Origin: a virus
Lineage: Duplodnaviria; Caudoviricetes
Direction: 5' to 3' (one strand)
DNA length: 64,000 bases
IMG/VR virus record: IMGVR_UViG_3300027917_000048
Location: 813-64,812 of that record
The first letter of the stretch is position 1. Each line of letters starts with the position of its first letter. Position numbers and translations under genes: made by a program. Below the pieces are notes generated by a model. It searched no databases. It saw only the letters and a list, made by a program, of their open reading frames with translations, and was not told the origin of the DNA. Positions 26,571 through 59,981 of the stretch are shown piece after piece.

Positions 26571-28307
26571 TTATGATACGATTGTATCCGTAGTTCTGAT
26601 TGCCGTAATAGTGATACCACCTGATACCAGTTGAGCCGTAGTTTCAAATGGAATGATACCATACTGTCTTACTCTTGCAACCAAATATCTATTAGATGCG
26701 TAAGTCAATTGTTGTTGTATTTGTGTAGCACCAGAAATTGTCTCTTCATCTATATAAGGTACATAACAAGTATCTGTTGGTCCTACGTATTCTTTTGATG
26801 TAGTAGCATCTAAGAAAACTCTATTTGCTCCCCAAGATGAATAAGTGTATCTCTCTTCACTTATTCCTGTATCCACCACTCTAATTACACCAGATGCTGG
26901 AGTATCCGCAGGAAAAGCTGTGGTAATATAGATTTTATCTGCACCAGATGAAATAGTTCCAGAAACTACAAATTGAGATTTATCAATAGTTCGTGAACCC
27001 TGTCCAGTAGACTTAGCTACCAGAACTCTGTCTCCAACTCCAGCTTCCCATTCAAGTCCCCCAACAGTAATCGGTGCTTGTGTGGGTGGGTTTCTTGTAG
27101 TACCAGCACTATCAATAAGCTGATAGTTCTCTGAGTCATCTGCATCCATATTTTCGATCCAGATACCTCTAGCACCAAAGAAAGTACCACCAGCAAATGA
27201 ACCAAAGGGAGCTGCTTTAATTGGAGCATATGTACCTTCTTGTCCTACAACAGTGACGTATTGTTCACCATCCATACCATCAATTTCTGTAGTTTCTCCA
27301 TCCCTAGCTACGTATTTAAGTCTTTCGTATACTTCATCCAGAGGTCTTCCACCACAATTGATGCTATAATCATAGTTTTGAACACCCGCTCCGTCACCAA
27401 TATCCTTTGAATACGGACCTGCTGTACCAATTACAACGTCTGTCCAAGTTGTAACAGTTCCTTCAGCTGTTTGATTGTTTAGATCATTAGCTGTGGCTAA
27501 AGGCACAGCCTGTCTACCACCAGGACCTAAGTCAATCTCAAACCAGTCCCACAAGTGAGTCCAAGCTCTATCATAAACTTGAACATAACCTGTGTCACCA
27601 CCAGCTAGGGGTGTACCCAATTCTGTACCTGCTTCTTTGATAAGCACAAGAATATCAATATGTCCTGTATCCCACCAAGCAGATGTACCAGTACCCCATT
27701 GTGACATTCTAACATCATCTCTAACAATATATAAAGTAGGAGTACCATAAAGAGTACCCAATGTATATAGGTTAGTCCATAAATTCTCTCCGGTAGCTGA
27801 ATTACCATTAGCATCACCATCTGCTGAGCTACTTGAAATAGTCATTACAGATGGATCAGTAATAGAGCTTGTGGTTCTAATCCACCATTTAGCTTCTGAG
27901 GCATTAATTTCTTCCCAATATAATAGCTCCCCTATAGGTGTGGCATCATCGTTTACTGTTTTACCAATATCAGATGCTTGTGCCATAGTGGAAATTCCAT
28001 CCAAATATAGAACAGCAATCTCGCCATCCCATCCATTTGTTTGAATTGCACCACCCTTTAGAGTTTGTATCGTTTTCTCATCAATAAACCAACCATTAAT
28101 AAGTGTATAGTCAGTAGGAGTCTGTGCCGACATTGGTACAGGATTGTCCATCTGGTCTAGCTCATCAAAGGTATCTTGTAAAAACGAATACAGAGCGTTT
28201 ACAGAGAGCATATCAGCTTTCGGATGGGGAGGTGTCTCTGCCCCATCATATCTAATAATTTTATTTACATAGTCTATTGTAAAATCGCCAGTACTAATAG
28301 CTGCCAT
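26571..28307 (-). CDS. Virion structural protein (neck/collar fibre candidate)
   Basis: 578 aa, G/T/D-rich; between head-tail connector genes; C-terminal domain shared with 28325..30013. Confidence 0.55.
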   Translation of the reverse strand: MAAISTGDFTIDYVNKIIRYDGAETPPHPKADMLSVNALYSFLQDTFDELDQMDNPVPMSAQTPTDYTLINGWFIDEKTIQTLKGGAIQTNGWDGEIAVLYLDGISTMAQASDIGKTVNDDATPIGELLYWEEINASEAKWWIRTTSSITDPSVMTISSSSADGDANGNSATGENLWTNLYTLGTLYGTPTLYIVRDDVRMSQWGTGTSAWWDTGHIDILVLIKEAGTELGTPLAGGDTGYVQVYDRAWTHLWDWFEIDLGPGGRQAVPLATANDLNNQTAEGTVTTWTDVVIGTAGPYSKDIGDGAGVQNYDYSINCGGRPLDEVYERLKYVARDGETTEIDGMDGEQYVTVVGQEGTYAPIKAAPFGSFAGGTFFGARGIWIENMDADDSENYQLIDSAGTTRNPPTQAPITVGGLEWEAGVGDRVLVAKSTGQGSRTIDKSQFVVSGTISSGADKIYITTAFPADTPASGVIRVVDTGISEERYTYSSWGANRVFLDATTSKEYVGPTDTCYVPYIDEETISGATQIQQQLTYASNRYLVARVRQYGIIPFETTAQLVSGGITITAIRTTDTIVS

Positions 28308-28324
28308 TTAATTTTTTCTCCATA

Positions 28325-30013
28325 TTAAGCTGCTATAATGTCTTGCGTCATAACAGCTGTTAAAGTAAATCCACCAGAATCTATTTCTCCAACAGCATCT
28401 ATAGGATAATACCTAGTAGAACCAGTTGAGGATTTTCTAATTCTAATGTTAATGGGCATAGTTCCCAAATAATTATATGATTCCTGTGCCTGTCCTGCCG
28501 GAGTAGTATGCTCATTCATTAATTGAGTAACTTCTCCACTAGCTGTATAAATAGCTACAGCTACACCACTAATAGCATTACCAAAAACATCTTCTACATT
28601 TACTGTTAAATAAACTGCATTATCAATTGTATAGCCACTACCAACTAGAACGTGTACCGTACCCGGATCAGATGAATTTTCAATAGATTCGATTGTAAGC
28701 CAATCAGAAGAGCTAGCACCACTAAAAGCAATATCATAATCATTACCAGCAAATTTTAAATTATCATATTGATAAGTTCCAGAAAGGGTATGTAAGATAC
28801 CGTGTGGATTATAAGTTGCGTGAGTATTTGCAATAAAGAAACTGTTTTTAATATCTACGCCACTAGGAGTCCAAAAGAAAGAAAATCCAGTATAATCATT
28901 GTCTGTAGTATTTGAAAAAGTTGTGTTTCTGATTACAACTGGTCCGCCCGGATCAAACATTCCGCATTGATCTACAACACAACCATAAAGTTTATGATCC
29001 GAATCACCTAAAGCAGTTACTCCTCCAGCCATATATCTGAAAGTAGTTCCATAAAAATTGATTGCGTTAGCTGCGTTATTAGTATCGCCTAAACGTACTG
29101 TAGTATTATGTAATGCACTTCCTAGAAAAAGACTGGCATTTCGTCCTCTTGATGTATCTCCAGTACCTACCTGTACGCCATCAGTAAATGATGTAGCATT
29201 GGTGGAATTACTTACTATATCAAGTCTAAAGAAATCATCACCAATAGCATCTACCCAACCACCACTATAATAATATTCTTGACTTACCCAACGAACAATT
29301 CTTTCAGTATCTGTAAAAGTAGTTCCGTTAGTGCTTTGATTGTCTCCAACCTCTAAGCGACCATAGGCATAATAAATGCCATCCCTTTCTTGTAAAATAC
29401 CATAGACATTTGTTGAGGTATTCATATCAGCATCTACTACATCTTGCCAACCATCAGTGGATGTGCCATAAATTTTTAATCCCCACCCAACATCTATTCT
29501 ATCAATAAATAAGTTATCTGCACGGGAAGAGCCTGTTGTTTCTACGCCTACTCCAAACCTACTAATAGAACTTATATCTGCACCACCACCAATAGTAAAT
29601 GTTGGAGTCTTTCTTGGGTCTAGTACAAACCTTTTCCAACCACCATTGTACCTATCTAAAGCATCCCCACCACCTACAACATAACAATTGAAAGTTGTAT
29701 CGCTGTCACCAACTAGTAAGTATAAACCATTATTAGCAACTAAATCTAAAATACCGGGAGTAGTGACATTTGCCCAAATAAAAACATGCTGTCCCTCATG
29801 TGTGCCACTGGCAGAAAAATCAAAAGAACCTGTACCAGAATAATCATACCAACCATAGCCATCTTTATTGTTGGCTTGGTATCCTACAGAGCCATTATAT
29901 TGAATTTTGATTTCTGACCATGATTCGGGTGCAGAAATTGTATCACTGTCCCAATTAGTTGTATTTTCTGCTTCTGTTACATTAGTACCATTGAAAATTA
30001 CCGTAGCTGCCAA
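28325..30013 (-). CDS. Virion structural protein with beta-helix-like region
   Basis: 562 aa; beta-helix-like stretches (IRNTTFSN, IKNSFFIAN) and a C-terminal Ig-like LTVNVED..GNAISGV.V. Confidence 0.55.
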   Translation of the reverse strand: MAATVIFNGTNVTEAENTTNWDSDTISAPESWSEIKIQYNGSVGYQANNKDGYGWYDYSGTGSFDFSASGTHEGQHVFIWANVTTPGILDLVANNGLYLLVGDSDTTFNCYVVGGGDALDRYNGGWKRFVLDPRKTPTFTIGGGADISSISRFGVGVETTGSSRADNLFIDRIDVGWGLKIYGTSTDGWQDVVDADMNTSTNVYGILQERDGIYYAYGRLEVGDNQSTNGTTFTDTERIVRWVSQEYYYSGGWVDAIGDDFFRLDIVSNSTNATSFTDGVQVGTGDTSRGRNASLFLGSALHNTTVRLGDTNNAANAINFYGTTFRYMAGGVTALGDSDHKLYGCVVDQCGMFDPGGPVVIRNTTFSNTTDNDYTGFSFFWTPSGVDIKNSFFIANTHATYNPHGILHTLSGTYQYDNLKFAGNDYDIAFSGASSSDWLTIESIENSSDPGTVHVLVGSGYTIDNAVYLTVNVEDVFGNAISGVAVAIYTASGEVTQLMNEHTTPAGQAQESYNYLGTMPINIRIRKSSTGSTRYYPIDAVGEIDSGGFTLTAVMTQDIIAA

Positions 30014-30014
30014 T

Positions 30015-30218
30015 TTACGCCTCTAATTCAAAATCTGGATTGTTATCCATAAATTCAGATAAAAGCCACCACTCTGTCCAAGTGGACTGTTTTCCAATAA
30101 CTTCTACTTCAACATATTCCTCCATTACAGTACCTCCTGTAATATCTGGAGACTCGTGTTGAATTATTTTTATAGAATCTATTTTCTTTTTCTTACCATT
30201 CAATCCCATTACTTTCAT
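30015..30218 (-). CDS. Hypothetical protein
   Basis: ATGA overlap with the GT gene gives the start MKVMGL. Confidence 0.6.
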   Translation of the reverse strand: MKVMGLNGKKKKIDSIKIIQHESPDITGGTVMEEYVEVEVIGKQSTWTEWWLLSEFMDNNPDFELEA

Positions 30219-31399
30219 ATGTTCATTACTCTCTTGAATATTTCTGCCCATTGATCTGCTATATTCATCCAATTATATTCAGGTCTGGAAAACTTTTCTA
30301 TTCCTTTCACAGATAATTCTTCATATAATTCTTTATCTTCATATATTTTTTGTAATTGAGTAGCTACATCTTCTGGTCTAACCACAGTACCTACAGTCTC
30401 AATTCTCTCGAAAGTTTGGTGCATTGTAGTTGGAATTAATAAACCAATATCTGAATAAATTTCTCTACTAGCACTATTATCTGAAACTATTTGTGGTGCT
30501 CCAGTAATAGCGTGCTCCATACTAGGTAATCCCCAACCTTCCCCCATACTGGTATTTAAACCAACATCCGTACTATTATAAACTAAATTTAAACGATTCT
30601 CTGGTATCTTTTGTACTCCTTCTTCCATGCTGGTTAACAAAAGTCTGTGAGACATTCCGTATCTCTCTGCAAGTTTAGGAATATTCCAGCCAACGTCCCT
30701 TATTCCTGCATGGTGGTAGTATCTGATATTTGTTGGTTTATCTTCAGCAAATAGGGAAAATCCTTCTAAAGCTAGGTCTAATCTTTTTCTTGGTTGATTT
30801 CTATTTGCATTTAATACTATGAAAGAATCTTCGCTCCAAAGTTCTTCTACGTTTGGATAAGAGATTTTTCTAAGTTCTGTTTTTGGCATCATTAACTTGT
30901 AAAAAGTTTCTGTATCTATTCCGTGTGGAATTATTTCAAAATCTATATCTTTTGGTGCGGCTTCCTTGGCAACCTCATATCCAAACTTAGTATAAACAAC
31001 AGCTTGAGATACTATATCAAAATTTTCAAACCAACGTTTATCAAACTCTTCCCCATCTACTGGAAAATAAATAACTACTGGAGGTACGGGATCAAACTGT
31101 CTTTTGATTTCATTTAAGTATTCATTAATCATCCAAAGATCATTTAATATGAAAATCATATCTATCTTAGCTGTTTTAAATTCCCGTATTCTATCCATCC
31201 CATAAACGTTTCCTCTTATTGGTGCAGGAAACATCATCCAATTATAAGGATGAGGATCGCCCCAATAGTTTACCGCTAAGTGCATTACCTGAAAAATTTC
31301 AGAATCTAGGTTTTTAATGATCGAGTGTGCTACTCTAGAAAATCCTGTAGGTGTTACTCCATCGGAAATCCAGAGGATTCGTTTTCTTTCTTGTTCCAT
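30215..31399 (-). CDS. Glycosyltransferase family 4 (GT-B)
   Basis: TGFSRV, IPHGID, NRNQPRKR and EGWGLPSMEH (ExFGLxxxE-type) motifs. Confidence 0.9.
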   Translation of the reverse strand: MEQERKRILWISDGVTPTGFSRVAHSIIKNLDSEIFQVMHLAVNYWGDPHPYNWMMFPAPIRGNVYGMDRIREFKTAKIDMIFILNDLWMINEYLNEIKRQFDPVPPVVIYFPVDGEEFDKRWFENFDIVSQAVVYTKFGYEVAKEAAPKDIDFEIIPHGIDTETFYKLMMPKTELRKISYPNVEELWSEDSFIVLNANRNQPRKRLDLALEGFSLFAEDKPTNIRYYHHAGIRDVGWNIPKLAERYGMSHRLLLTSMEEGVQKIPENRLNLVYNSTDVGLNTSMGEGWGLPSMEHAITGAPQIVSDNSASREIYSDIGLLIPTTMHQTFERIETVGTVVRPEDVATQLQKIYEDKELYEELSVKGIEKFSRPEYNWMNIADQWAEIFKRVMNI

Positions 31400-32658: not shown

Positions 32659-33582
32659 TTAGCTAATCCCACCGATGACATAGATTCCGTCAGCTTTCCA
32701 GATCATAAGACCGAATCTCTGATAGAATTCTAAGTTCCATTGTGGAGGGGTAGGTCGCATATCTGTCCATTCTTTATAGTTTACATCACCATAAGTAATG
32801 AATTCTCCGACCTTCTCTCCAATAACGAGAACCTTGTCTTCAGGGATAAAGGCGTTATAGTCTTCAAAGTTGTCATAAATCTGATCGATGGCAACAATGG
32901 GAGCACCATACCAACTTCCAAGCCAACCAGTTCGCATGATTTCCTGTAGCTGAGGATCAAGTCCTCTCCACATAGCATCTGACCCGACGGTATTACCGTC
33001 ATTCCAGAATCCACCAAACTGAGTAATTGGAGTTAGTGCCGCACGAGAACCAACAACAGCTTTAGTTCCAGAAGTAGTGCGATTGACATAATCAATAGCG
33101 TTCTTCAAAAGAGTAGCTGTAAGCGATCCTCCAGCATCTATGAAGTTATTGGGGGTATTGGAAGCTGTCCAGATTGAAGTAAGAGCTGTAAATACTTTCT
33201 GTTGGAAAGTATCTTTCAGTTTAGCGAGCATTTCACCACGAATCTCTTCAACTGTTCCAATATCTCCGGCGTTCATCTCCCATTCATTAAACGTAACACC
33301 TACGTCTAATCCGTCAAGTAAGTAATTGGCTCTCTCGTACACAGTGATTTCACTTTTCAGATGAATTGATCCGGGTACTAACGTATAAACTTTAATACCT
33401 TTTCTCAATTTCTTAACAAGGGAATCACCCTCCTTGAGTGAACGAGAATCCAGTAACATACTAACAAAATCGACGGTAATGTGTCCGGGTTCTAGCCATT
33501 CAACAAACATTTGAGCCAAAGCTTCTCTGTTTTCCTTATCCTTTACAGCACTTGCTAAGGCTACCTTTAATTTTTCATCCAT
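32659..33582 (-). CDS. Major capsid protein (HK97 fold)
   Basis: 307 aa after protease and decoration genes; GWLGSWYGAPIV, D.VLVIG and Y.RFG C-terminal MCP pattern. Confidence 0.8.
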   Translation of the reverse strand: MDEKLKVALASAVKDKENREALAQMFVEWLEPGHITVDFVSMLLDSRSLKEGDSLVKKLRKGIKVYTLVPGSIHLKSEITVYERANYLLDGLDVGVTFNEWEMNAGDIGTVEEIRGEMLAKLKDTFQQKVFTALTSIWTASNTPNNFIDAGGSLTATLLKNAIDYVNRTTSGTKAVVGSRAALTPITQFGGFWNDGNTVGSDAMWRGLDPQLQEIMRTGWLGSWYGAPIVAIDQIYDNFEDYNAFIPEDKVLVIGEKVGEFITYGDVNYKEWTDMRPTPPQWNLEFYQRFGLMIWKADGIYVIGGIS

Positions 33583-36763: not shown

Positions 36764-38316
36764 GTTGTTAACCACCTACTTTTGAACAATTTCGTTTGAT
36801 TTTTAGCAGGAAGAAAGTACTCATGCTCTAGGTAGTACGCCATACTCCCACACAACAAAGCTGCTGTAAAGTGGTCTTCTCCTCTCTGTCCTCCTCTTGG
36901 AGTTAAAGTTTTATATACTAAATCTCCTGTTGGTGTTTTAGAGTAGGTCATTCTCTCTAATTCAGAAACTAATTCTAAATCAGTGGAAGAATAAATGAAC
37001 TTATGGTTATTAGAGTACTCCTGTAAAATAGAAACTGAAAAAGGTTTTGTTTTAGATTTTATTTCTTCTCCGTCAGAATCAAACCCTAGTGAAATCTGTG
37101 AAGAAAAATTAATTGGTACTACTCTTTTCTTGTAGTCTTTATGTAAGTATTCTTTTGAATCTTGCAAGCGTTGAATAACGCTTATTCCTGCTGAACCCCA
37201 ATCAACTCCTATAGCTATGGGGTTATATATTGTATCTAATTTATCTATTATCTTATCTTGAAGAGCATAAGATACCTTATTCATTTGCACCCGACAATGA
37301 AATTTTAATTGACCAGATGCTATTGAATAGAAAATAATTATTGCTGTTGGGTCTGTGTATCCTAAATCTATTCCAAAATAAACTTTTTTAGCACTAGATG
37401 GTAATGCTGGAAGTCCAGCTAATTTAGGGATATAATCACCAAAATTCTCTTTTAACTTAATTCCATCAAGCACTAGTTTATATACTGGATAAGAATCTAT
37501 TTGCATTGTATTTCTGTCAAAAATAGAGAATATCGGAGAACCATGCTCCCCTAATACCAAATGAATATAGTCCTCATTATCTTCGCCACCATATTTCTCT
37601 ATTGCATCTTGGTGATCTTTTTCAGTAAATCTAGGATTATCAAATGCAGACACCATATGTTTAGTATAAGATGAATCTTCTTGATCATTTACCCAAAGTA
37701 CATTCTTTTCTCTAATTCCAGTAGGCACTCCAGAACTTAATAACCTGTGTCCTTTAGTAAAAGTATTAAGAATTGGTTGTAATTCTACCCAAGTACCCCA
37801 AGGATAGTAACCAGATTCATCCAACATTACAAAAGGTACGTGTAAACCAATAACGTTTGCACCTGTTCCAGTAGTACCAGCAATACGACAAGTTAATGTA
37901 CTTTGATTTAATAAAGTTACTTCAAACGTAGAGCTATTAAATCCAGATGTTGGAGAAACAAAATTCCTAAGAAAAGAATTCGATCTAAAAATTCTTATCA
38001 ATCCTCTCCATACTGGTTGTAAATGTACTCTACTAGGTACGGTGTAAACAATATCATAGCCGGGAAATACTTTAAATATAAGTATCCAAGTTATAATAGA
38101 AACTAGGGAAACTGTTTTACCAACACTTCTTGCTGTAGCTATGGAAACGTGGTAATGAAAATCACAAAGAATTTGTTTCTGATACCAAGAGAATTCAAAT
38201 TCTTCTTCCCATTCCCGTCTATCATAATTATTAATAAATTCGTTGCATAATACCGGGTTACGTAAAATTTCGTAAAGTATTAAATCTTCGTTAGTTACTT
38301 TTTCAATTATTGCCAT
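36760..38316 (-). CDS. terL: Terminase large subunit
   Basis: Walker A ARSVGKT, Walker B VMLDE, nuclease GIDLG, C-terminal DH. Confidence 0.9.
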   Translation of the reverse strand: MAIIEKVTNEDLILYEILRNPVLCNEFINNYDRREWEEEFEFSWYQKQILCDFHYHVSIATARSVGKTVSLVSIITWILIFKVFPGYDIVYTVPSRVHLQPVWRGLIRIFRSNSFLRNFVSPTSGFNSSTFEVTLLNQSTLTCRIAGTTGTGANVIGLHVPFVMLDESGYYPWGTWVELQPILNTFTKGHRLLSSGVPTGIREKNVLWVNDQEDSSYTKHMVSAFDNPRFTEKDHQDAIEKYGGEDNEDYIHLVLGEHGSPIFSIFDRNTMQIDSYPVYKLVLDGIKLKENFGDYIPKLAGLPALPSSAKKVYFGIDLGYTDPTAIIIFYSIASGQLKFHCRVQMNKVSYALQDKIIDKLDTIYNPIAIGVDWGSAGISVIQRLQDSKEYLHKDYKKRVVPINFSSQISLGFDSDGEEIKSKTKPFSVSILQEYSNNHKFIYSSTDLELVSELERMTYSKTPTGDLVYKTLTPRGGQRGEDHFTAALLCGSMAYYLEHEYFLPAKNQTKLFKSRWLTT

Positions 38317-38978
38317 AAACTATTAAAATCAATTCTTGGAATTATATCCTCACTTAGTTTTGTTTTAGAACTTGCGTTATACAGTTTTCTTCCAGAACCC
38401 TCATAGTACTCTCTTGCTAATTTGTAACCAAGCTCTACTCTCTCTAAATTTTGATGATTATATTTTACTTTACCTGAAAAATAATTGGGATCAAAATGAT
38501 TTGGATCGCCTCCCTTATTTATAAATTTCCCCCTATCAACTCTTTCTGTATTAGAATAATCTATAAAATGATCCATACCTATAATATATACTGGATCAAG
38601 TCCCATATAAAATGCTACCTGTAAAGCTACATTTGTAACTGAATGTCCCTGCCAAATTGGTACTGCTATACTAGGACTGAACTTGGGTACATCATTTGTC
38701 CAACGAAGTTTATAAGTATTTTCTCCCCTAAGACTGTGGGTGAATTTAGCTTCACACTCAAAAGATTCCATCTCTTCTCTAAATTGATCTTCAACTAAAT
38801 TATCTATTGTTACTAGATATGTTATGGATAAATCTTTTTTTATATACCCTCTATTTAGACCAAAAACTATTTCCCCCTTTAATTTAGAAACATCTATATT
38901 ATTGAGGCTCGGACCATTGCACGCAATAAATCCTCGTCTACCTTTGTGGATGTTTTTGAATCGTGTAATCCCTTCCAA
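38307..38978 (-). CDS. Maf/DUF115 (MptE-like) family putative nonulosonate glycosyltransferase
   Basis: FKNIHKG.R.FIACNGPSL, FGLNR, SV...ALQVAFYMG...YIIGMDH, NHF.PNYF and YNAS motifs. Confidence 0.8.
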   Translation of the reverse strand: MEGITRFKNIHKGRRGFIACNGPSLNNIDVSKLKGEIVFGLNRGYIKKDLSITYLVTIDNLVEDQFREEMESFECEAKFTHSLRGENTYKLRWTNDVPKFSPSIAVPIWQGHSVTNVALQVAFYMGLDPVYIIGMDHFIDYSNTERVDRGKFINKGGDPNHFDPNYFSGKVKYNHQNLERVELGYKLAREYYEGSGRKLYNASSKTKLSEDIIPRIDFNSLWQ

Positions 38979-39628
38979 ATTACCTCCGCAATCTCGAAAT
39001 CACTTTCATAATTAATATCTACAGCCTCTATATAATTTATTGGTACTCCTCTAAAATTATTTGGATCAATTCTTTTTTTATTCTCAAAAGCATATTTAGT
39101 TTTAAAAGCATACAGTCCGGTATGTTCTACAAAAGTATAAGGCAGTTCTTTTGAATTTAAAAGTTTTCCGTCTTTATAATAATCTGGAGTTAAACTTTCA
39201 GTTGGATGTTTTTTACTCCAAGTATATAACTTTTCTGATGTAGCTGTAAAACTAGAATTATAGCCAGTTACTACATTTCCAATACATTCATCAATAGTTT
39301 TTGGTTTTATGAAAGGAGATGTTGGTACTACTTGTACTATAATATCATATTGAGGTAAACTTTGTGCTTGCCAATAAGCTAAATCATCTCCTGTTATAAA
39401 ATTATTGGCTAAATATTGGGGACGTTTTAATGGCTTAGCTCCACAAGCTATACCAACTTTTAGAATTATATCGTCTTCGCTATCTATATAAACATCATTT
39501 ACTAATTTAGCATCACAGGCATTTTTTATAGCATGACAAATTAATGGTTTACCTCCAAGTTTTCTTAAATTCTTGTTTGGTAATCTTTCGCTTTTACCTT
39601 TTGCATGTACTACAGCAGCTACTCTCAT
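38894..39628 (-). CDS. neuA: CMP-nonulosonate (acylneuraminate) cytidylyltransferase
   Basis: AKGKSERLPNKN..LGGKPL, RP..LA, PTSPF and DIN..DF motifs; ATGA-coupled start at 39628. Confidence 0.9.
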   Translation of the reverse strand: MRVAAVVHAKGKSERLPNKNLRKLGGKPLICHAIKNACDAKLVNDVYIDSEDDIILKVGIACGAKPLKRPQYLANNFITGDDLAYWQAQSLPQYDIIVQVVPTSPFIKPKTIDECIGNVVTGYNSSFTATSEKLYTWSKKHPTESLTPDYYKDGKLLNSKELPYTFVEHTGLYAFKTKYAFENKKRIDPNNFRGVPINYIEAVDINYESDFEIAEVIWKGLHDSKTSTKVDEDLLRAMVRASII

Positions 39629-40200
39629 GTATACTCCCTTTCCAATATTGCTATTGCGTCTGATATATGTACTATTCTCCAAGGTTCTTCATAATCCATT
39701 GCATATCTAACAGCAGTTACAACCCCTTCCTCTGTTTTATCATAGTCATCAAAAATAATATATTTAGTTACTCTATTTTTTAACATATTCCAATCTAACA
39801 GAGGATTTGGGTCACGATGATCTCCGTCTATAAAACCACAACTAAATCTATAATTCCCCCAAACCATTTCTTCAGAGGGTATTTGATAAACTCGTATTTT
39901 GTTTTCCACTCCCCAAATACTGGCATTATCATAAATATCTCTAGGATTTGGTTCAATACACCATATATCCCCATCCAATTTAAATTCTTTTTTAGTAAGA
40001 GCTGCTGTAATAGCAGAGCCTCCGTGTAAAGAACCTATCTCTACATAATCACCGTGTCCAGCATTTCTTATTGCCTGACATAATAAACCAGTAGCATGTG
40101 AACTTTGTACTAACTTGTTTCCTAGTTTATCCTTTATCTCCTTATGCAAACGTCTACCATAATAGTATCCGTCATTTAGGGGGAAGAAAAATTTATCCAT
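39625..40200 (-). CDS. Class I SAM methyltransferase (Methyltransf_24-like)
   Basis: VEIGSLHGGS, FIDGDH, IIFDDY. Confidence 0.85.
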   Translation of the reverse strand: MDKFFFPLNDGYYYGRRLHKEIKDKLGNKLVQSSHATGLLCQAIRNAGHGDYVEIGSLHGGSAITAALTKKEFKLDGDIWCIEPNPRDIYDNASIWGVENKIRVYQIPSEEMVWGNYRFSCGFIDGDHRDPNPLLDWNMLKNRVTKYIIFDDYDKTEEGVVTAVRYAMDYEEPWRIVHISDAIAILEREYT

Positions 40201-40741
40201 TATCTATCACCTTGAAAGCAAAACTTGAATAAGAATCCTCTAACCAATAATAGCTTATCAGTTCAACTGGTATACCGAATTCTATAAAAGCCCTGAACTC
40301 GTCTGAGTAACTTTTAGAAATAAATTCATCAAAATATAAAACCGTACCCGGCACTATTCTTTCAAAGAGATTTAAAGTCCATAGTACATTACGTGTTGAG
40401 TAATAAAGGTCTGCATCGAAATTTATAAAAGCTGCTTTCTCTTTGTGCTCTATTAAGAAATGACCAATCGTAATATCAAAGTTACCCTTTACTGTTACTA
40501 CATTTTTTGGCAAGTCTGGAACAATTCCTCTTAAATCAAATGTACCCTTTTTATATTTACCATACCAATCTTCAGGTAAACCAGCAAAACTATCAAAGCC
40601 GTAAATAGTTCTATCTGGTAATAGTTTAGAAAGTATTTTAGTAGTAGCTCCTTTATACACACCAAACTCTAGAATAAGCCCATCTAAAGTTATGCTTCTT
40701 ATAGCTCTCCTAAATACATCTAATCTATTTTGTCCAATCAC
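40193..40741 (-). CDS. TylF/MycF-like sugar O-methyltransferase
   Basis: LEFGVYKG, GFDSFAGLPE, DADLY.ST, G.VLYFDE. Confidence 0.85.
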   Translation of the reverse strand: MIGQNRLDVFRRAIRSITLDGLILEFGVYKGATTKILSKLLPDRTIYGFDSFAGLPEDWYGKYKKGTFDLRGIVPDLPKNVVTVKGNFDITIGHFLIEHKEKAAFINFDADLYYSTRNVLWTLNLFERIVPGTVLYFDEFISKSYSDEFRAFIEFGIPVELISYYWLEDSYSSFAFKVIDNG

Positions 40742-41618
40742 TAGAGCTTCCTAAGTAAGTATTTCCATAAGTTTGTTTCTGTAAAAATTCCTCTTCCACT
40801 TTACTCATACCAAATTCTGTCTTGAAAACAACATCTGGTAAGTTATATTCAACAGAAGAATCCTTACTCTCTTCAATCATTTGTTTGAATTCTTTTGGCT
40901 CTAGACTACATTCTATATGATGTACAAAAGAATGTCTAGATAAACAAAAATGTCTTTCTATTAAATATGGATCATATTTTTTAGCAACAACTACAGAGGG
41001 TACTATCCCCTCTTCATGTCCAGAGTACCCTATCTTTACTTTGGAAGTTTCAAATTCATCTTTTAATTTCTGAATATTTCCTAATCTTAATTTACTAATT
41101 GGGCAGGGATATTCAGCCACGCAATGTTGTAAAACTACTCTTCTATCTCCCAAAGTTTCTAAGAGATTGTCTATCTCTTTTAGGGTAGAGCCTCCCACTG
41201 AAACTACTAGTTGTTTGGTCTTGGGTACTTGTTTCCCTAATTCTTGTATAAAAGCATAGTCCCTTGCACTTGAAGATGCTATCTTATATTTGGGAAGTTT
41301 ATATTCTAACATAAATTCCAAAGATGGAATATCCTGTACAGTAGCAAACCACTTTATTTTTAATCGCTTACACAGTGAATCAAATCTATCAAAGTCCTCT
41401 TTGCCAAATTCAAATATTTTCCTGTAATCCCAATACGTTTTTCCATAGGGGGATAGGTAAAATCTATCCAACTTTTCCTTAGAGTAATAAGTTTCAACGT
41501 CCTTCTTCTGCATCTTAATGAAGTCTGCACCCGCAATTCTTGCTTCTCTAACCATTTCTTCAAGTACATTATAATTTCCCATATGGTTTGTTGTAAATTC
41601 TGCTACAAACTGTGTCAT
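40725..41618 (-). CDS. neuB: N-acetylneuraminate/nonulosonate synthase (NeuB family), apparently lacking SAF domain
   Basis: AE...NHMG, GAD.IK.QK, KIAS, HCV.EYP, GYSGHE.G and IERHF motifs. Confidence 0.9.
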   Translation of the reverse strand: MTQFVAEFTTNHMGNYNVLEEMVREARIAGADFIKMQKKDVETYYSKEKLDRFYLSPYGKTYWDYRKIFEFGKEDFDRFDSLCKRLKIKWFATVQDIPSLEFMLEYKLPKYKIASSSARDYAFIQELGKQVPKTKQLVVSVGGSTLKEIDNLLETLGDRRVVLQHCVAEYPCPISKLRLGNIQKLKDEFETSKVKIGYSGHEEGIVPSVVVAKKYDPYLIERHFCLSRHSFVHHIECSLEPKEFKQMIEESKDSSVEYNLPDVVFKTEFGMSKVEEEFLQKQTYGNTYLGSSSDWTK

Positions 41619-41836
41619 ATAACCTCCTCTTCATAATCACACTTATCGCACTTAAGCCAAATATCAGTCCAACCCCTACCATCTTCATCATCATAACAAA
41701 CTAACGTCCTGTGTACTAAACCATAACCACAAACACACGGTTTAGGATAACCATTTTCTTCACTACACATAAAACATTTTTTATCACCCTTATCGTGGTC
41801 ATAAAAATAATATTCCCATTCTCCCGGCTCTACCAT
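41615..41836 (-). CDS. Small Cys-rich zinc-binding protein
   Basis: CxxC, CxC and CxxC in 73 aa. Confidence 0.55.
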   Translation of the reverse strand: MVEPGEWEYYFYDHDKGDKKCFMCSEENGYPKPCVCGYGLVHRTLVCYDDEDGRGWTDIWLKCDKCDYEEEVI

Positions 41837-42486
41837 CTCCCAAACTCCTTATAAACTTTTTTCCCTATTCCAACACTATCATTTTCAATAATTGCATCTC
41901 TTATCTCTTGTTCATAGTCTAATTTTATTGGCAACAAGTTAATTACGTCTTCTAATAGCTCCCATCGTATTACTAAAATAGCATCTTCATCCGCAAAAAT
42001 ATAATCGTAGGGAGTAATAAAAATATTTCCTATAACTATTTCCTCCAGATAGTTAGTAATACCCCACCTATCAGCAGAGTCTTGTGGCTGTACACCTTTA
42101 GCCCAAATAGGAAAACCATAGCTTTCTATTCTTCTAATATCTCTAGTCCAACCCTGTATTACTGCACCGACAGCACCTTTCTTTTTTAGAAATAGTGACA
42201 TTATATCTCCAAAATGAGCACGACTATTATCATTAGCTTGTAAAATATAAACATCCCCCGGCATTATTTCATCTATCATCTCTGCTACTCTTTCGTGATT
42301 AGGCGAAGATGTTTTATCTCCTCTGGCTGTAAAAGCTTTCCCAAATATAAATCCATTTGCACTAGAAAATCTTGGCTTTACTAGAGGTTTTATATCATTA
42401 GGAAGTACAAAATTCTCTTTATACTTTAAATCAAACTTTATAATGTCGTATATAGCACCGCTGTATGCCCTTGAATCAATCTTCAT
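41830..42486 (-). CDS. RraA family / HMG aldolase-like protein
   Basis: G.AFT, AHFGDIM, GAVGAVI.G..RD, I.P.DYIFADED motifs; start MKIDS after a GGAG RBS. Confidence 0.85.
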   Translation of the reverse strand: MKIDSRAYSGAIYDIIKFDLKYKENFVLPNDIKPLVKPRFSSANGFIFGKAFTARGDKTSSPNHERVAEMIDEIMPGDVYILQANDNSRAHFGDIMSLFLKKKGAVGAVIQGWTRDIRRIESYGFPIWAKGVQPQDSADRWGITNYLEEIVIGNIFITPYDYIFADEDAILVIRWELLEDVINLLPIKLDYEQEIRDAIIENDSVGIGKKVYKEFGRW

Positions 42487-42637
42487 GTTTTTCTCCTTTC
42501 CAGTTTTCCCACATTTCATCTGCTATTCTGCCTATGTCCTGTGCCGTCATTCCTTCTATCTTATATTCTTTTGGTCGCCTGAATAATCTCCATAAAGTAA
42601 AAATAATTACAATCCCTAGTACAACCAACCATTCCAT
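42476..42637 (-). CDS. Small single-TM protein (53 aa), not in ORF track
   Basis: MEWLVVLGIVIIFTLWRLFRRPKE...; AGGAG RBS. Confidence 0.55.
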   Translation of the reverse strand: MEWLVVLGIVIIFTLWRLFRRPKEYKIEGMTAQDIGRIADEMWENWKGEKHED

Positions 42638-42646
42638 TTTCATCTC

Positions 42647-42823
42647 CTATAGTCCTGATAAGAATAACACAGCAATTGCTAGTACAACTGCTGTTGCCAT
42701 TACGCCCTTAAAAAAGTCAAATTTATTTTGAGCTGAATAATAAAGTCCTACCCAAACAAGAATTGCTAAGAACAAAGGAAGTACCTTATTCAATACTATA
42801 TCTTGAATATTGTCTGTTATCAT
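42647..42823 (-). CDS. Small 2-TM protein (58 aa), not in ORF track
   Basis: MITDNIQDIVLNKVLPLFLAILVWVGL...AVLFLSGL; ATGA overlap. Confidence 0.55.
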   Translation of the reverse strand: MITDNIQDIVLNKVLPLFLAILVWVGLYYSAQNKFDFFKGVMATAVVLAIAVLFLSGL

Positions 42824-43053
42824 TTAGCATCTCCATGAAACCCGTAATCTTCAATCACTCTGAAAATATCAGATATTGGGTATTTGTAAATCTTTTCACC
42901 ATTCACAAATACACATAGAAAGCTTCCTTTTTCATAAAGATTTATAGTATTTGCGTGTATTATCGGCTGTGATTGCAATTTCAAGTGTATTGTTACACCG
43001 TGCGTGTTTATATCCACCGCATCAAAGCCGTCGTTTAGCAACAGTTCACTCAT
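42820..43053 (-). CDS. Hypothetical protein
   Basis: 77-aa coupled ORF. Confidence 0.55.
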   Translation of the reverse strand: MSELLLNDGFDAVDINTHGVTIHLKLQSQPIIHANTINLYEKGSFLCVFVNGEKIYKYPISDIFRVIEDYGFHGDAK

Positions 43054-43496
43054 TACTTAACTCCTTTCACAATGTTAAATATTTCTTTCATAGTAAATTG
43101 TTTAGTATCCAGTAACCAATTAGCACCAGTTATAAAAGCACCCCACTCTTCAGCTTCTGCTAATTTAGTTAGTGCGATTATGTCAGCATTGTGTTCATTG
43201 TTTACACAATTTTTACCTTGTAATACGTGCCCCCACTCGTGGGCTAAAGTATATTTCCATAAAGCAGACTTCTCTGTTTTCCATTTAGGGGAAAGATAAA
43301 CGGTGCTGGTACACACTAATGGATCACCAACAGCGAGTGTGGCACTCCACCAAGTACCTATATCCCTAAACTGCCAGTTGGTAGCAACACCAAAGTATGG
43401 TTGCATCTTCTCAGCAAAATCATCAGCAGACTCCACAGAAAAGGGAGATACTATTGAAATACTTAGAAGAATTAAACTAATGAACAGTTGGCTCAT
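43053..43496 (-). CDS. Exported HEXXH zinc metallopeptidase-like protein
   Basis: N-terminal signal-like hydrophobic stretch; LAHEWGH plus a downstream E..AD. Confidence 0.6.
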   Translation of the reverse strand: MSQLFISLILLSISIVSPFSVESADDFAEKMQPYFGVATNWQFRDIGTWWSATLAVGDPLVCTSTVYLSPKWKTEKSALWKYTLAHEWGHVLQGKNCVNNEHNADIIALTKLAEAEEWGAFITGANWLLDTKQFTMKEIFNIVKGVK

Positions 43497-43686
43497 TAAA
43501 AGTTACCCTGTAGTATGAAGTCTCTTCTAAATCCATTTTTTCCAATTGAGGGTCTTTATCCAAATATCTCATAAAACCAATATAGTCTAATTCAGCTTGG
43601 TTGTCACAATACTTATAAATAAAGTACCCTATTAGCATAATAAACTCTTTTTCTAATCTCTCTACCTGCCTAGCCTCTTCTGTCAT
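43477..43686 (-). CDS. Hypothetical protein
   Basis: 69-aa coupled ORF. Confidence 0.5.
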   Translation of the reverse strand: MTEEARQVERLEKEFIMLIGYFIYKYCDNQAELDYIGFMRYLDKDPQLEKMDLEETSYYRVTFNEPTVH

Positions 43687-43910
43687 TCACGCATCTCCTC
43701 GTTAAATTTATTTATGGTATTAGCATGTGCTCTAATTTCTCCTATATAATTATCATTTGCTTCGTTTAACATTTCTCTATAGTTTGCTATTATATTTTTG
43801 TAAGTAGAAATTATTGAATCCCATTGAGCTATTGTAGCTGCTGTTCCAACAAGATACCCTATCATAAAAACAAGTATTCCTCCTAAAATTACAAATCCGT
43901 CTTCCATCAC
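43683..43910 (-). CDS. Small TM + coiled-coil protein
   Basis: N-terminal hydrophobic helix. Confidence 0.5.
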   Translation of the reverse strand: MMEDGFVILGGILVFMIGYLVGTAATIAQWDSIISTYKNIIANYREMLNEANDNYIGEIRAHANTINKFNEEMRE

Positions 43911-44848
43911 TTACTCCTTTCCTCTAAATCTTTTATTAGTTTATCTACTCCAGCATTTTCTCTAAAAAAATTTCTTTTGTATTTAATTCTATCTATTGTC
44001 CTGTCTGCATAAGCTTGTTCACAAGTATTTAATACTTGTGATAAATTAATTGGATAAGTAGTTAAAGAATATTCTGGAAAAAGAACATCCGTAGCTCCAT
44101 AGGTGTTTGTACCAACAAAAAAAGTTCCGCTAAAAGCTGCGTCATAAACTGCACGACCAGTGGTTAATCTATAAGATAAATCCACAAATATCTTACTCCT
44201 ATCCATTAAGTGATCAAAGCGTTGAATAGATGCTCTTGTAAATTTTTTAGTATTAGTAATTATAGGGTAATCTAGTTTATCCTTATAAAATTCGTAAAGT
44301 TCTGTATTTAGAATCATTACACAAATAGAATACTTTCTTCTCTTTAATTCTGTAAATAATTCTAAGGTTTCTACTACATTTCTATTTGTATCTAAACAAG
44401 TAAAAAAATCTATATCTTTTATCTTAGATATTGGTTTTTCAAATTCTGTATGATAACAGCGTAATGGTAATCTTTCAACTGGTTTTGAAAAAGGATTATA
44501 CCAAACTGGTTGTTCCCAAATGAATTTATCACAAGGCTCGAAAGTTTTATGAAAAAACCTTGATGTATTTTTAGGTCCATCTAGCTTATATAGTTTACCT
44601 AGATGGTTATCAGCATCAAACTCTATCCAAAAGTTTCGAGCCTCTTTTTTTAATTTATTTGGTAAATCCTTCCAAGCATTATATTGATCTAATTTCCAAA
44701 CGCAATGTAGAATTACATTATCGCCTGTAAAATCAGTATCTTTAGCTTCTAAGTAGTTTAAATACTTAGCACCCATATGCTTTTGTATTACGTAGATAGG
44801 ATAAAACGCTTTTGTATCTACCCCAATCCTTGAAATTATATACCACAT
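43907..44848 (-). CDS. Divergent GT-B glycosyltransferase-like protein
   Basis: C-terminal SKIFVDLS..LTTGRAVYDAAFSG...VG resembles the GT4 nucleotide-binding segment. Confidence 0.55.
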   Translation of the reverse strand: MWYIISRIGVDTKAFYPIYVIQKHMGAKYLNYLEAKDTDFTGDNVILHCVWKLDQYNAWKDLPNKLKKEARNFWIEFDADNHLGKLYKLDGPKNTSRFFHKTFEPCDKFIWEQPVWYNPFSKPVERLPLRCYHTEFEKPISKIKDIDFFTCLDTNRNVVETLELFTELKRRKYSICVMILNTELYEFYKDKLDYPIITNTKKFTRASIQRFDHLMDRSKIFVDLSYRLTTGRAVYDAAFSGTFFVGTNTYGATDVLFPEYSLTTYPINLSQVLNTCEQAYADRTIDRIKYKRNFFRENAGVDKLIKDLEERSK

Positions 44849-45552
44849 TATATTATGCTTTCTGGAAGAACCTCTGGTTTATTAGATGCTAAACTAGTAG
44901 CCCATAAGCCTCTAGTATCCACACTAAACTTATGATTACACAAAACCTCAGGCTCTTTTCCTCCTTTCCTTCTATTACAAGTAAAAGTTAATACATTATC
45001 TACTTCTGGATATTGTACCCAAATAGTAGCCAAGAGCATATCACACTTAGGGCAAATAATGTACCTCATTTTTTGATCAGCAAATCTCTGTGCTTTCTCT
45101 TTTAGGGTTTCAACAGTTTGAATAACATCTTCTCTATCATCTGATTTTCTTACTTTACGACTAATTTTTAAATCAGTTTGCTGATTAGATATATCTCTTC
45201 TTAAATCTGAAATGATCTTCTGTATCTTATCAACAGTCATAATATTATCTGCTCCAATATTCTGACGTTCTTCATAAGCCATTAATTCAAAGTCTTCTAA
45301 TGAAATTAAGCCTTGTGCCAAAGCTCTTAGTATTAAAAGATCATTTGACTTCATATCAGAAAGATCATAGTCTTCGGTTAATTCATTTATTTTTTGTTGT
45401 ATCCGTTCCTCAAAATCTTCACCAAGAGGTTCAGCCTTATACTCTTCTTTTCTTTCTTCTATAATTTCTAAGAATTCTTCTTCACTCAAGTCTTTGTATT
45501 GAGGAAGATTTCTAAGGCTTTTCGGACTTATTGCTCTCTTGTGTTTCGACAA
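44848..45552 (-). CDS. Putative terminase small subunit with C-terminal zinc ribbon
   Basis: N-terminal SLRNL motif, helical middle, CPKC...C...C; near the head of the operon leading to terL. Confidence 0.4.
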   Translation of the reverse strand: MSKHKRAISPKSLRNLPQYKDLSEEEFLEIIEERKEEYKAEPLGEDFEERIQQKINELTEDYDLSDMKSNDLLILRALAQGLISLEDFELMAYEERQNIGADNIMTVDKIQKIISDLRRDISNQQTDLKISRKVRKSDDREDVIQTVETLKEKAQRFADQKMRYIICPKCDMLLATIWVQYPEVDNVLTFTCNRRKGGKEPEVLCNHKFSVDTRGLWATSLASNKPEVLPESII

Positions 45553-46845: not shown

Positions 46846-46869
46846 CCTTTCAAATTTATGTTATACTTA

Positions 46870-46943
46870 CAGACGGGATAGGACTCGAACCTACAACCAC
46901 TTGTTTTGGAGACAAGCACTTTACCAAATTAAGCTACCCATCT
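46870..46943 (-). tRNA. tRNA-Trp (CCA)
   Basis: Cloverleaf: acceptor AGATGGG/CCCGTCT, anticodon arm CTTGT-CTCCAAA-ACAAG, T-arm GGTTCGAGTCC; no encoded CCA end. Confidence 0.92.
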
Positions 46944-46949
46944 ATTTTA

Positions 46950-59894: not shown

Positions 59895-59967
59895 GTCCTA
59901 GTAGCTTAATGGATAAAGCAACGGTCTTCTAAACCGTAGACTATAGGTTCGAGTCCTATCTAGGACG
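59895..59967 (+). tRNA. tRNA-Arg (TCT)
   Basis: Acceptor GTCCTAG/CTAGGAC, anticodon arm ACGGT-CTTCTAA-ACCGT, T-arm ATAGG-TTCGAGT-CCTAT. Confidence 0.92.
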
Positions 59968-59981
59968 CAAAGGAAAGGAAA

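Follow-up and report, generated by a model that had tools for sequence, protein, structure and literature searches.

A putative ulosonic acid cassette next to the terminase gene of a marine sediment phage, with a possible role in virion glycosylation

Virus-made glycans on particles are established for giant viruses and, more recently, for mycobacteriophages, in which glycosyltransferases encoded near the structural genes glycosylate capsid and tail-tube proteins (Freeman et al. 2023, cited in PMC12619734). Here, we describe a cassette of sugar genes in a stretch of 64,000 nucleotides (positions 813 to 64,812) of the viral record IMGVR_UViG_3300027917_000048; this whole stretch is called the window below. 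The cassette encodes a NeuB-type ulosonic acid synthase, a NeuA-like CMP-sugar synthetase, two methyltransferases and a small DUF115 transferase with a predicted sialyltransferase-like fold, and it abuts terL, the gene of the large terminase. It shares with the mycobacteriophage system the placement of phage glycosyltransferases in or beside the structural genes, here with a GT4 enzyme in the head block and the cassette next to terL. Mycobacteriophages infect a different host clade and their glycans have been demonstrated, whereas the present system is a prediction from sequence and fold. To our knowledge, mycobacteriophage virion glycosylation includes neither nonulosonic acid synthesis nor CMP activation.

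Other described systems resemble the cassette in part. In the giant virus CroV, the account in PMC9614988 gives a predicted cluster for Kdo (3-deoxy-D-manno-octulosonic acid) in which a NeuA-like cytidylyltransferase is fused to a 'demethylmenaquinone methyltransferase' domain, and Kdo-8-phosphate synthase is fused to a sugar O-methyltransferase. The CroV genes (crov265-267) and the phage cassette, both in-silico predictions, share an ulosonic acid synthase, a NeuA-like CMP-synthetase, a sugar O-methyltransferase and a 'demethylmenaquinone methyltransferase' module, a title also given to structures that match the RraA-like profile. Compared by its published description, CroV has a KdsA-type Kdo-8-phosphate synthase, an isomerase and a phosphatase, whereas the phage has a NeuB-type synthase, adds a sialyltransferase-fold transferase and keeps the set in a tailed-phage late operon. 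Prophage genes of Acinetobacter baumannii (epaA/epaB, O-acetyltransferases) likewise act on nonulosonic acids; as described, however, they tailor the host's own capsule sugar in lysogeny, form no synthase, CMP-synthetase and transferase set, and do not lie in a morphogenesis operon. Hypermodification of phage DNA with glycans (Pyle et al.; glycosylated 5-hydroxycytosine) also relies on clusters of glycosyltransferase and sugar-modifying genes, sometimes near the terminase, but a base-hydroxymethylating enzyme was not found in the five records searched here, and the compared text of those papers does not mention ulosonic acids.

A preliminary description of this DNA, made from the sequence, knew of no characterised tailed phage whose morphogenesis operon includes a full set of synthase, CMP-activating enzyme and transferase, and full-text literature searches (supplements excepted) likewise found no characterised tailed phage that makes, activates and transfers a nonulosonic acid. 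NeuB genes occur in many IMG/VR viruses, and what is new is therefore how the genes are arranged and their inferred use, along with a swappable slot for sugar genes, a mobile RraA-NeuB module and a candidate T-x-S-G sequon. The cassette very probably makes and transfers a CMP-activated ulosonic acid. Our best explanation of the whole, to which we give an even chance, is a late-operon glycan cassette that makes an ulosonic acid cap for virion proteins.

The cassette and its sugar-making enzymes

The window covers 64,000 of the 64,812 bases of a linear record that is estimated to be 72% complete, and its predicted genes support a tailed-phage genome. The genes between position 1 and about 47 kb are on the minus strand, and those beyond 47.2 kb are on the plus strand. 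The minus arm encodes the large terminase, portal, head proteins, a 2292-amino-acid (aa) tape measure, tail and fibre proteins and a GH25 endolysin, and the plus arm encodes PolA, RecA, DnaB, nucleases, a primase-like protein and an IMPDH/GMP-reductase-like gene product. Four sequencing runs contain window DNA; their label is marine sediment metagenome, and none is listed as an RNA run. In run X1, possibly the source sample, a single contig covers 34176-47277 with three differences, and run X3, from another sample and study, has near-identical pieces, which argues that the assembly is not chimeric at the cassette. A tyrosine integrase was found in none of four related records (that of the window and three relatives) with positive controls, and the phage is a virulent-looking siphovirus type from marine sediment. 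The genes of the block are as follows.

44848..45552, minus strand: conserved 234-aa protein heading the block; C-terminal Cys cluster; no Pfam or PHROG family
43907..44848, minus strand: compact GT-B-fold glycosyltransferase, 313 aa, putative cassette core; weak Pfam Glycos_transf_1 match, E 1.5e-3
42476..43910, minus strand: six small open reading frames (ORFs) that interrupt the cassette
41830..42486, minus strand: RraA-like protein, similar to HMG/CHA (4-hydroxy-4-methyl-2-oxoglutarate/4-carboxy-4-hydroxy-2-oxoadipate) aldolase; Pfam 92.5 bits, E 4e-26; ORF extends to 42519
41615..41836, minus strand: Cys-rich ORF, 73 aa; CxxC...CxC...CxxC; no family
40725..41618, minus strand: NeuB synthase, 297 aa, SAF-less; Pfam NeuB 164.6 bits, E 3.5e-48
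40193..40741, minus strand: TylF-type S-adenosylmethionine-dependent (sugar O-)methyltransferase; Pfam E 1.6e-12; phrog_6608 E 5e-27
39625..40200, minus strand: Methyltransf_24 class I methyltransferase; Pfam E 8.6e-6, 27.0 bits against a gathering threshold of 26.3
38894..39628, minus strand: NeuA-like CMP-ulosonate synthetase; CTP_transf_3 E 2.3e-16, 60.7 bits against a gathering threshold of 22.6; ORF extends to 39682
38307..38978, minus strand: DUF115/Maf-core/GT42-like transferase, 223 aa; Pfam MptE-like/DUF115 E 5e-7, 30.0 bits
36760..38316, minus strand: terL, large terminase; phrog_2 E 2.4e-14; Terminase_6C E 3.7e-4
30215..31399, minus strand: GT4 glycosyltransferase in the head/neck block; phrog_2170 E 6e-43; Pfam Glycos_transf_1

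The ORF list and Pfam searches recovered every gene named in the preliminary description in its place on the minus strand, and PHROG, Pfam and fold comparisons did the same for the GT-B enzyme upstream and the GT4 enzyme among the head and neck genes. The set of synthase, CMP-activating enzyme, transferase and two methyltransferases is real and intact-looking, co-oriented and overlapping with terL, and kept in relatives. Adjacent cassette genes overlap by 4-17 nt; the DUF115 gene, read from a TTG start, overlaps neuA by 85 nt, and its end overlaps the start of terL by 10 nt. From this layout, the cassette is predicted to be translationally coupled and to form part of a late operon co-oriented with the packaging genes. 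No 19-residue segment reaching 1.6 on the Kyte-Doolittle scale was found in the seven enzymes of the cassette or in GT4, which suggests that the cassette enzymes are soluble. The likely start of NeuA is the ATG at 39628; for the RraA-like protein, coverage of 95% of the query by homologues points to the ATG at 42486 as the likely start.

The NeuB domain (Pfam 164.6 bits against a gathering threshold of 22.1) spans residues 22-253, and the protein aligns to PseI (8h2c) and to the 290-aa protein 6ncs. The conserved catalytic and metal-binding motifs AE..NH, K.Q, YKI.S, SxH and ExH all align with those of PseI 8h2c, and residues E7, N11, H12, K35, Y111, K112, S199-G-H201 and E221-R-H223 were invariant in five sequences. 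A C-terminal SAF (antifreeze-like) domain was not matched by Pfam in the 297 residues; SAF-less NeuB proteins are described as a known class in environmental bacteria (PMC8208679), and 6ncs is one such protein. The synthase missed the NCBIfam equivalog cut-offs for NeuB/NnaB (143 bits vs 399.65) and PseI (129 vs 340.25), and NeuA, whose best NCBIfam model was PseF (77 bits vs a cut-off of 205.7), likewise did not reach the KdsB equivalog cut-off. Since no equivalog cut-off was reached, the sugar cannot be called neuraminic (Neu), pseudaminic (Pse) or legionaminic (Leg) acid. A NeuC-type 2-epimerase and a DegT aminotransferase were each found in none of three records (the 72%-complete record and two relatives) with positive controls, so the aldose must come from the host, and with no amino-sugar steps encoded the product may be a deaminated acid similar to KDN (ketodeoxynonulosonic acid). 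A KDN-like product from mannose or mannose 6-phosphate is a reasonable guess. The word 'full' in the preliminary description of the pathway is not borne out by these epimerase, aminotransferase and equivalog results.

The 234-aa protein at the head of the block is 38-83% identical in relatives, where it lies upstream of the sugar genes (in relative L021 directly upstream of terL). It had no Pfam or PHROG family, its Atlas matches were viral hypothetical proteins and a weak YonG lead (0.82), and it is a possible small terminase. The six small ORFs, which are probably outside the pathway, comprise two with a transmembrane-like segment and proteins of 77 aa (phrog_10299), 147 aa, 69 aa and 75 aa (membrane-like), and only the 147-aa and 69-aa ones are conserved in L006, the closest relative. 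The 147-aa ORF (43053-43496, minus strand) has a signal-like N-terminus and an HEWGH zincin-like motif, and no family match. The 73-aa Cys-rich ORF, described earlier as a Zn protein, is present but is not a conserved part of the cassette: it had no Pfam or PHROG family and is absent from L006, where the RraA and NeuB genes abut.

The DUF115 transferase

Family searches matched NeuB, CTP_transf_3, TylF, Methyltransf_24 and RraA as expected from the preliminary description, but the DUF115 protein fell short of its Pfam threshold. We assign it by family profiles, fold and gene context. It has 299 database relatives, and the near-length ones listed cover 98-100% of its 223 aa, which supports the TTG-start form; PF01973 is present in the precomputed Pfam annotation of 119 of the 120 relatives listed. 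The public gene call of this protein is only 154 aa long and starts at an internal Met, and the TTG form includes an NGPSL motif. An alignment of 47 members has 13 invariant columns (G22, L25, N42, Y45, F100, G111, M125, G134, D158, H161, Y166, A188 and L208). The family profile matched the Campylobacter sialyltransferase Cst-II with E 7e-5 (residues 13-186 vs 4-208), and the xNGPSL motif at the N-terminus lines up with the one in Cst-II. Residues D158, H161 and Y166 fall in the segment aligned to the C-terminal catalytic region of Cst-II, where the HMMER register is of low confidence.

The AlphaFold model of the protein (pLDDT, predicted local distance difference test, 96.7) gave the same picture. 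The first 11 Foldseek matches were all Cst-I/II (probability 1.0, template modelling score about 0.5). In a fold search independent of Foldseek, the Magnetospirillum Maf protein 5mu5 ranked first (Z 15.4, 182 residues aligned), with the model aligned to residues 259-511 of the 632-residue Maf chain, and further matches included Cst-I 2p56 (Z 11.3), SteA (Z 10.7) and animal GT29 sialyltransferases (Z about 8.5). The phage protein thus shares the catalytic fold of Maf and the GT42 enzymes Cst-I/II, and its gene likewise lies beside NeuA/NeuB-type genes. By contrast, the flanking domains of Maf are absent from the 223-aa phage protein, and Pfam and PHROG found no flagellar genes around it in the phage late operon. 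Taken together, these results suggest that the DUF115 protein is the bare catalytic core common to Maf and GT42 enzymes and not a full Maf. The earlier naming of this gene as Maf was thus correct as to a sialyltransferase/Maf-like enzyme, by profile and fold, but did not hold for Maf proper, since the protein is a catalytic domain only and its nearest cellular kin lie in polysaccharide-type clusters of Chloroflexota instead of flagellar loci.

The preliminary description had noted that the protein might instead be a pterin diphosphokinase. The Pfam family is indeed named MptE-like, and the archaeal pterin kinase MptE (8sd5) had the second-best fold match (Z 12.7), with thiamin pyrophosphokinases at Z 6-8. 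However, the family profile favours Cst-II, nearly over its full length, to MptE (E 0.41, 23 residues only), Maf had the best Z score and Cst-I/II took the top of the Foldseek list. The neighbours of DUF115 genes in phages and cells are NeuA, NeuB and glycosyltransferases, and no folate genes were seen in Pfam scans of the window. Profile, fold and gene context together make an MptE-like pterin or thiamin-type diphosphokinase, in place of a glycosyltransferase, highly improbable.

Cellular relatives point in the same direction. A scan of a species-genome collection with one N-terminal pattern, which biases the sample, yielded 586 confirmed stretches with DUF115 genes. Among the best 80 (34-42% identity), 79 had Anaerolineae/Chloroflexota-type titles and one was from Bacteroidetes; NeuA homologues were present at 51 of these 80 loci and NeuB homologues at 11, many of the loci being short. 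The DUF115 cluster of Leptolinea sp. HRD-7 encodes two short-chain dehydrogenases/reductases, a CTP_transf_3-HAD fusion, a 291-aa SAF-less NeuB, Capsule_synth, three GT2 enzymes, a second CTP_transf_3 protein, a 2-hydroxyacid dehydrogenase and two PMT_2 proteins. This cluster and the NeuA and NeuB neighbours suggest that the DUF115 subfamily is tied to CMP-sugars. A DUF115 copy 83% identical to that of the window (P0002) and an RraA-like copy (57%; P0167) are labelled as Thorarchaeota metagenome-assembled genome (MAG) sequences; they are probably phage DNA that was binned into the MAG.

Relatives of the cassette and of the phage

A synteny survey of IMG/VR found the cassette conserved in relatives and the combination of RraA, NeuB and NeuA with a sialyltransferase-fold gene recurring in unrelated phages. 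A terL search gave 15 related viral loci (57-90% identity), among which only L006 (L006/L017/L114; terL 89% identical) has the same colinear cassette. Ten of the terL loci have at least 2 kb upstream, of which four distinct ones (L003, L007, L012 and L015) were scanned with Pfam, the rest being near-duplicates by BLAST. In all four, other sugar genes fill the slot between the 234-aa gene and terL (L003:2182-7243, L007:2484-8385, L012:308-6791 and L015:139-7174): GT11, GT10, GT25 and two GT2 enzymes, FkbM methyltransferases, a cytidylyltransferase-like protein, a GmhA-like SIS protein and an epimerase. L014 has a GDP-mannose dehydratase just before terL. The slot thus looks like a hypervariable, swappable glycan site, and its holding other sugar chemistries suggests diversifying selection on a glycan of the particle surface.

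Searches with the DUF115 profile gave 17 viral loci, eight of which (L017-L024) have the terL of this lineage downstream. The order in L018 is Methyltransf_24, NeuA, DUF115 and terL. In L023, the genes leading up to terL encode, in order, an NTP-transferase, NeuA, RraA, NeuB, one unassigned protein, DUF115, two further unassigned proteins, another DUF115, FkbM, a sulfotransferase and NKWYS, and L025 has GT-B, RraA, NeuB, NeuA, a phosphatase, Methyltransf_24 and DUF115; these two cassettes are divergent versions of that in the window (33-51% identity). In L019-L022, DUF115 occurs with GT2 and NTP-transferase genes and without NeuB. A phage of another type (L031:6701-9557) has a GT61 gene and a 522-aa DUF115-GT2 fusion between GP7-type capsid and SU10-type adaptor genes. 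Methyltransf_24 orthologues adjoin DUF115 in L006, L018 and L025.

A viral NeuB is no rarity, as relatives of the profile are encoded in at least 506 IMG/VR viral stretches. Among the best 80 of these NeuB loci, NeuA was nearby in 37 (tblastn) and DUF115 in 5 (tblastn) or 16 (hidden Markov models, HMM). RraA was nearby in five by tblastn and HMM alike, and these five NeuB proteins are the closest to that of the window. Three of the five come from unrelated phage backgrounds. In L116:5066-9561, HAD, sulfotransferase, GT29-like, RraA, TylF, NeuB and NeuA genes lie between a terL of a different type and the portal gene of a phage with an HK97 capsid. The T4-like L115:3758-10546 has the RraA-NeuB-NeuA set after regA, with a GT29-like gene in place of DUF115, and L117:5575-8918 has NeuA, GT29-like, RraA and NeuB genes. 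The three unrelated backgrounds suggest that RraA, NeuB and NeuA with a sialyltransferase-fold gene form a mobile module.

In the window, and in six of six viral contigs whose NeuB is at least 45% identical to that of the window or which belong to the same phage lineage (L114, the same as L006; L115; L116; L117; L118, the same as L023; and L025), the RraA-like gene immediately precedes neuB, apart from one TylF gene between the two in L116. By gene order, the RraA-like protein appears to be a conserved partner of this NeuB clade. Its family profile matched 5ir2 (E 1e-29), 3k4i (E 1e-24) and the HMG/CHA aldolase 3noj (E 1e-17), and R115 and D116, which we take to be the catalytic Arg and Asp of the aldolase, were invariant in 21 sequences. 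Close relatives were 52 metagenomic or viral-looking proteins, those with names being labelled generically (RraA, HMG aldolase and, in one case, RraA family protein of an archaeal MAG), and our guess is that the protein performs aldolase or decarboxylase chemistry on a 2-oxo acid. A search for fused RraA forms among longer proteins, graded as weak evidence, found none. Several of the Protein Data Bank (PDB) chains that match the RraA-like profile are titled 'demethylmenaquinone methyltransferase', the name of the domain described in CroV. By this analogy, the same four functions would be linked by fusion in the giant virus and by adjacency in phages.

Among GenBank phages, terL gave one distant match (27% identity) and NeuB matched two unannotated records. 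The probable capsid protein is 21-28% identical to those of Bacillus and Clostridium siphophages of about 80 kb (in the 15 listed of 23 matches), and a SpoIID domain is present in relative L025; together they give a weak lead to a Bacillota host. Elsewhere in the window, a tRNA-Trp(CCA) gene (46869-46944, minus strand) lies where the two arms diverge, and the replication arm carries a tRNA-Arg(TCT) gene (59895-59968, plus strand), the IMPDH/GMP-reductase-family gene (58318-59286, plus strand, E 4e-66) and a weakly matched gene similar to those for deoxynucleoside monophosphate (dNMP) kinases (57297-57929). A promoter scan was uninformative (66 sites vs 71 +/- 8.5 in shuffles), and terminator-like sites numbered 13 vs 7.4 +/- 2.9; none were used as evidence.

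The acceptor of the sugar

We counted T-x-S-G in the proteins of the window because the preliminary description had mentioned TxSG peptides, with expected numbers from shuffles of each protein. As many as 25 sites, often T-V/I-S-G, occur in the 31 late-arm proteins (11,321 aa; 251-36775, minus strand) vs 5.7 +/- 2.4 expected (z 8.2), and the other 33 proteins (7,906 aa) have 2 vs 1.5. The 381-aa fibre-like protein at 6100-7245 has three sites, and the capsid candidate at 32659-33582 is also rich in the motif. When 24,000 patterns of three residues were compared, T-x-S-G was the most over-represented (25 vs 5.8; Poisson P 2.9e-9; 7e-5 after Bonferroni correction), and eleven control patterns stayed within |z| 2.6 in the late-arm proteins. 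Its Ser is encoded by TCN codons 14 times and AGY codons 11 times; the use of both codon families places the signal at the protein level, and a DNA-level origin was rejected. A general bias of fibre-like proteins was rejected as well, since large S/T-rich viral proteins have 6 sites vs 8.9 expected (ratio 0.68) and the lambda structural region has 2 vs 3.4 (0.60). Backgrounds were 86/73.6 (1.17) in Chloroflexota loci and 88/71.0 (1.24) in other viral loci. In relative G002, whose terL is 50% identical and which has DUF115 without NeuB, the structural region has 13 sites vs 4.1 (rank 5 of 8000) and the rest 3 vs 2.0; the head region of relative G004 has 6 vs 1.8. A 146-aa neck-region protein (24775-25215, minus strand) with the Cys motifs CTASGC and CTTCSG has homologues in G002 and G004 that also have T-x-S-G sites (three and two, respectively). 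These counts make T-x-S-G a candidate glycosylation sequon.

Enzymes that could start a glycan are present at two places. The AlphaFold model of the GT-B enzyme (pLDDT 93) had a best fold match of Z 19.3 and many GT-B enzymes at Z 17-19 (275-293 residues aligned); its family is rare (29 representatives at E <= 1e-3 among 1.84 billion), and it lies beside RraA and NeuB in L006 and L025. The GT4 enzyme has orthologues 41-88% identical in L005, L006, L007, L010, L019 and L021, whatever the cassette. Because the T-x-S-G excess survives changes of cassette while GT4 is conserved, the simplest model has the glycan begun by GT4 and/or GT-B and completed by the cassette. Directly after the GT4 gene, two S/T/N-rich proteins of 578 and 562 aa are encoded (26571-30013, minus strand). 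They had no PDB sequence match at E <= 1, no family and only viral hypothetical proteins as Atlas matches, no homologues were detected in G002 (where the gap between flanking homologues is about 1.2 kb), and they may be head fibres or decorations.

The mechanism that we propose would run as follows. NeuB would condense phosphoenolpyruvate with a host-supplied aldose or aldose phosphate to a 3-deoxy-2-ulosonic, nonulosonic-type acid, which NeuA would convert to the CMP-sugar, and the methyltransferases would methylate the sugar before or after transfer. The DUF115 enzyme would then add the ulosonic acid as the terminal residue of a glycan begun by GT-B and/or the GT4 of the head module, with virion proteins as acceptors during assembly in the cytoplasm, possibly at T-x-S-G sites. 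The virion coat of the preliminary description is favoured by the T-x-S-G excess, the conserved head GT4 and the recurrent insertion of sugar genes in head and packaging regions, but it was stated too strongly, and for the virion as acceptor we see the case as evenly poised. A wider picture is tentative and distinctly less probable: that phages of this sediment lineage O-glycosylate head, tail and fibre proteins at T-x-S-G via GT4, that the hot-swappable slot diversifies the outer glycan, and that here a methylated nonulosonic cap is made by a virus-specific RraA-like/NeuB route that moves among unrelated phages and has its parallel in the gene fusions of CroV.

Several observations weigh against capping of virion proteins. 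The acceptor, the sugar and the activities are all inferred, and the record is only about 72% complete. The missing SAF domain suggests that the substrate may be unusual or the activity low, and at the position aligned to the Glu of 'ASFEA' in PseI 8h2c, presumably Glu134 of N. meningitidis NeuB, the five NeuB sequences have Ser, Ser, Asn, Asp and Ser (Ser in the window). Environmental NeuB proteins are reported to have Asp in place of Glu134 in 29% of cases (PMC8208679). A phosphatase was not recognised in the window, whereas L025 (His_Phos_1) and L116 (HAD) have one, a hint of a 9-phosphate route in those two. The Pfam score of DUF115 lies below its gathering threshold (30.0 vs 34.6 bits), MptE ranks second in the fold search (146 residues aligned), and the cellular DUF115 kin lie in polysaccharide-type clusters, which makes a non-protein acceptor plausible. 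The T-x-S-G counts in G002 and G004 are not fully independent replications, because the proteins are homologous; the motif could be a lineage-specific beta-turn or fold-specific turn motif, and 2 of the 25 sites are in Cys-knuckle contexts. The L115 module lies in the replication block and the L021 cassette upstream of the 234-aa gene instead of between it and terL, so adjacency to terL may reflect no more than a site that tolerates insertions. A TET-associated glycosyltransferase (TAGT; PF20691, E 1e-45) is encoded in the slot at L012:4656-5534 and also at L011:1114-1992.

These points bear on where else the sugar might go. In one alternative, the CMP-sugar would be added to a wall polysaccharide, capsule, S-layer or flagellin glycan precursor of the host, and such remodelling, which we consider rather unlikely, would mask receptors, so that superinfection is blocked or progeny are kept off debris. 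The nearest cellular DUF115 kin do lie in envelope-polysaccharide-type clusters (Capsule_synth, GT2, PMT_2), genes for NKWYS ('capsular polysaccharide synthesis') proteins and sulfotransferases occur in related viral cassettes, and prophage enzymes that alter capsule nonulosonic acids are described for Acinetobacter (PMC12053666 and PMC6586298). Nevertheless, Pfam and hydropathy revealed no flippase, polymerase, ligase or membrane-anchored transferase in the window, no integrase was found in four of four records, the genes lie in the late virion arm, and a host acceptor leaves the T-x-S-G excess confined to virion proteins unexplained. Hypermodification of DNA, in which a modified base would bear the ulosonic-capped glycan and be protected from nucleases, is improbable. 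It would fit the TAGT-family gene in the same slot of L011 and L012, a family that is predicted to act on DNA, the weak dNMP-kinase-like matches in the window and L025, and the T4 alpha-glucosyltransferase among the fold matches of GT-B (Z 15.2, rank 42). Phage glycosyltransferases are also described as placing diverse glycans on DNA, sometimes beside the terminase (bioRxiv 10.1101/2023.12.21.572611). However, a Thymidylat_synt-type hydroxymethylase was found in none of five records, including the 87%-complete G002, with ten control genomes positive, and Tet_JBP in none of the five in a search without a positive control, the genomes being incomplete in both cases. Pfam found no TAGT in the window, and no TET or ThyA-like gene is in the analysed pieces. 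The acceptors known for enzymes of the sialyltransferase fold are sugars and proteins, which also counts against DNA, and the words 'sialic', 'nonulosonic' and 'NeuB' do not occur in the compared text of phage DNA-glycan papers.

It is equally hard to credit that the genes merely boost or re-route the nonulosonic acid supply of the host, or are recent cargo of little function. NeuB relatives are frequent in viral stretches, a review of marine phages (PMC6359870) explains pseI among the abbreviations to one of its tables, and the upstream steps are not encoded, which leaves the pathway dependent on the host. Against this, the cassette keeps its own transferase and GT-B across versions of 33-51% identity, its genes form a coupled, overlapping array, and all 52 matches of the RraA clade came from metagenomic or viral-looking sequences.

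If capping of virion proteins by the cassette is true, acidic, methylated nonulosonic caps would join the known surface repertoire of phages, with a bearing on adsorption, stability in sediment and evasion of lectin-like or protease defences. For glyco-engineering, the system would supply T-x-S-G as a simple candidate sequon and, at 223 aa, a minimal enzyme of the sialyltransferase fold; it would also open a first functional approach to the RraA-like partner of ulosonate synthases in phages and CroV. The swappable slot also offers a natural experiment on the diversification of viral glycans.

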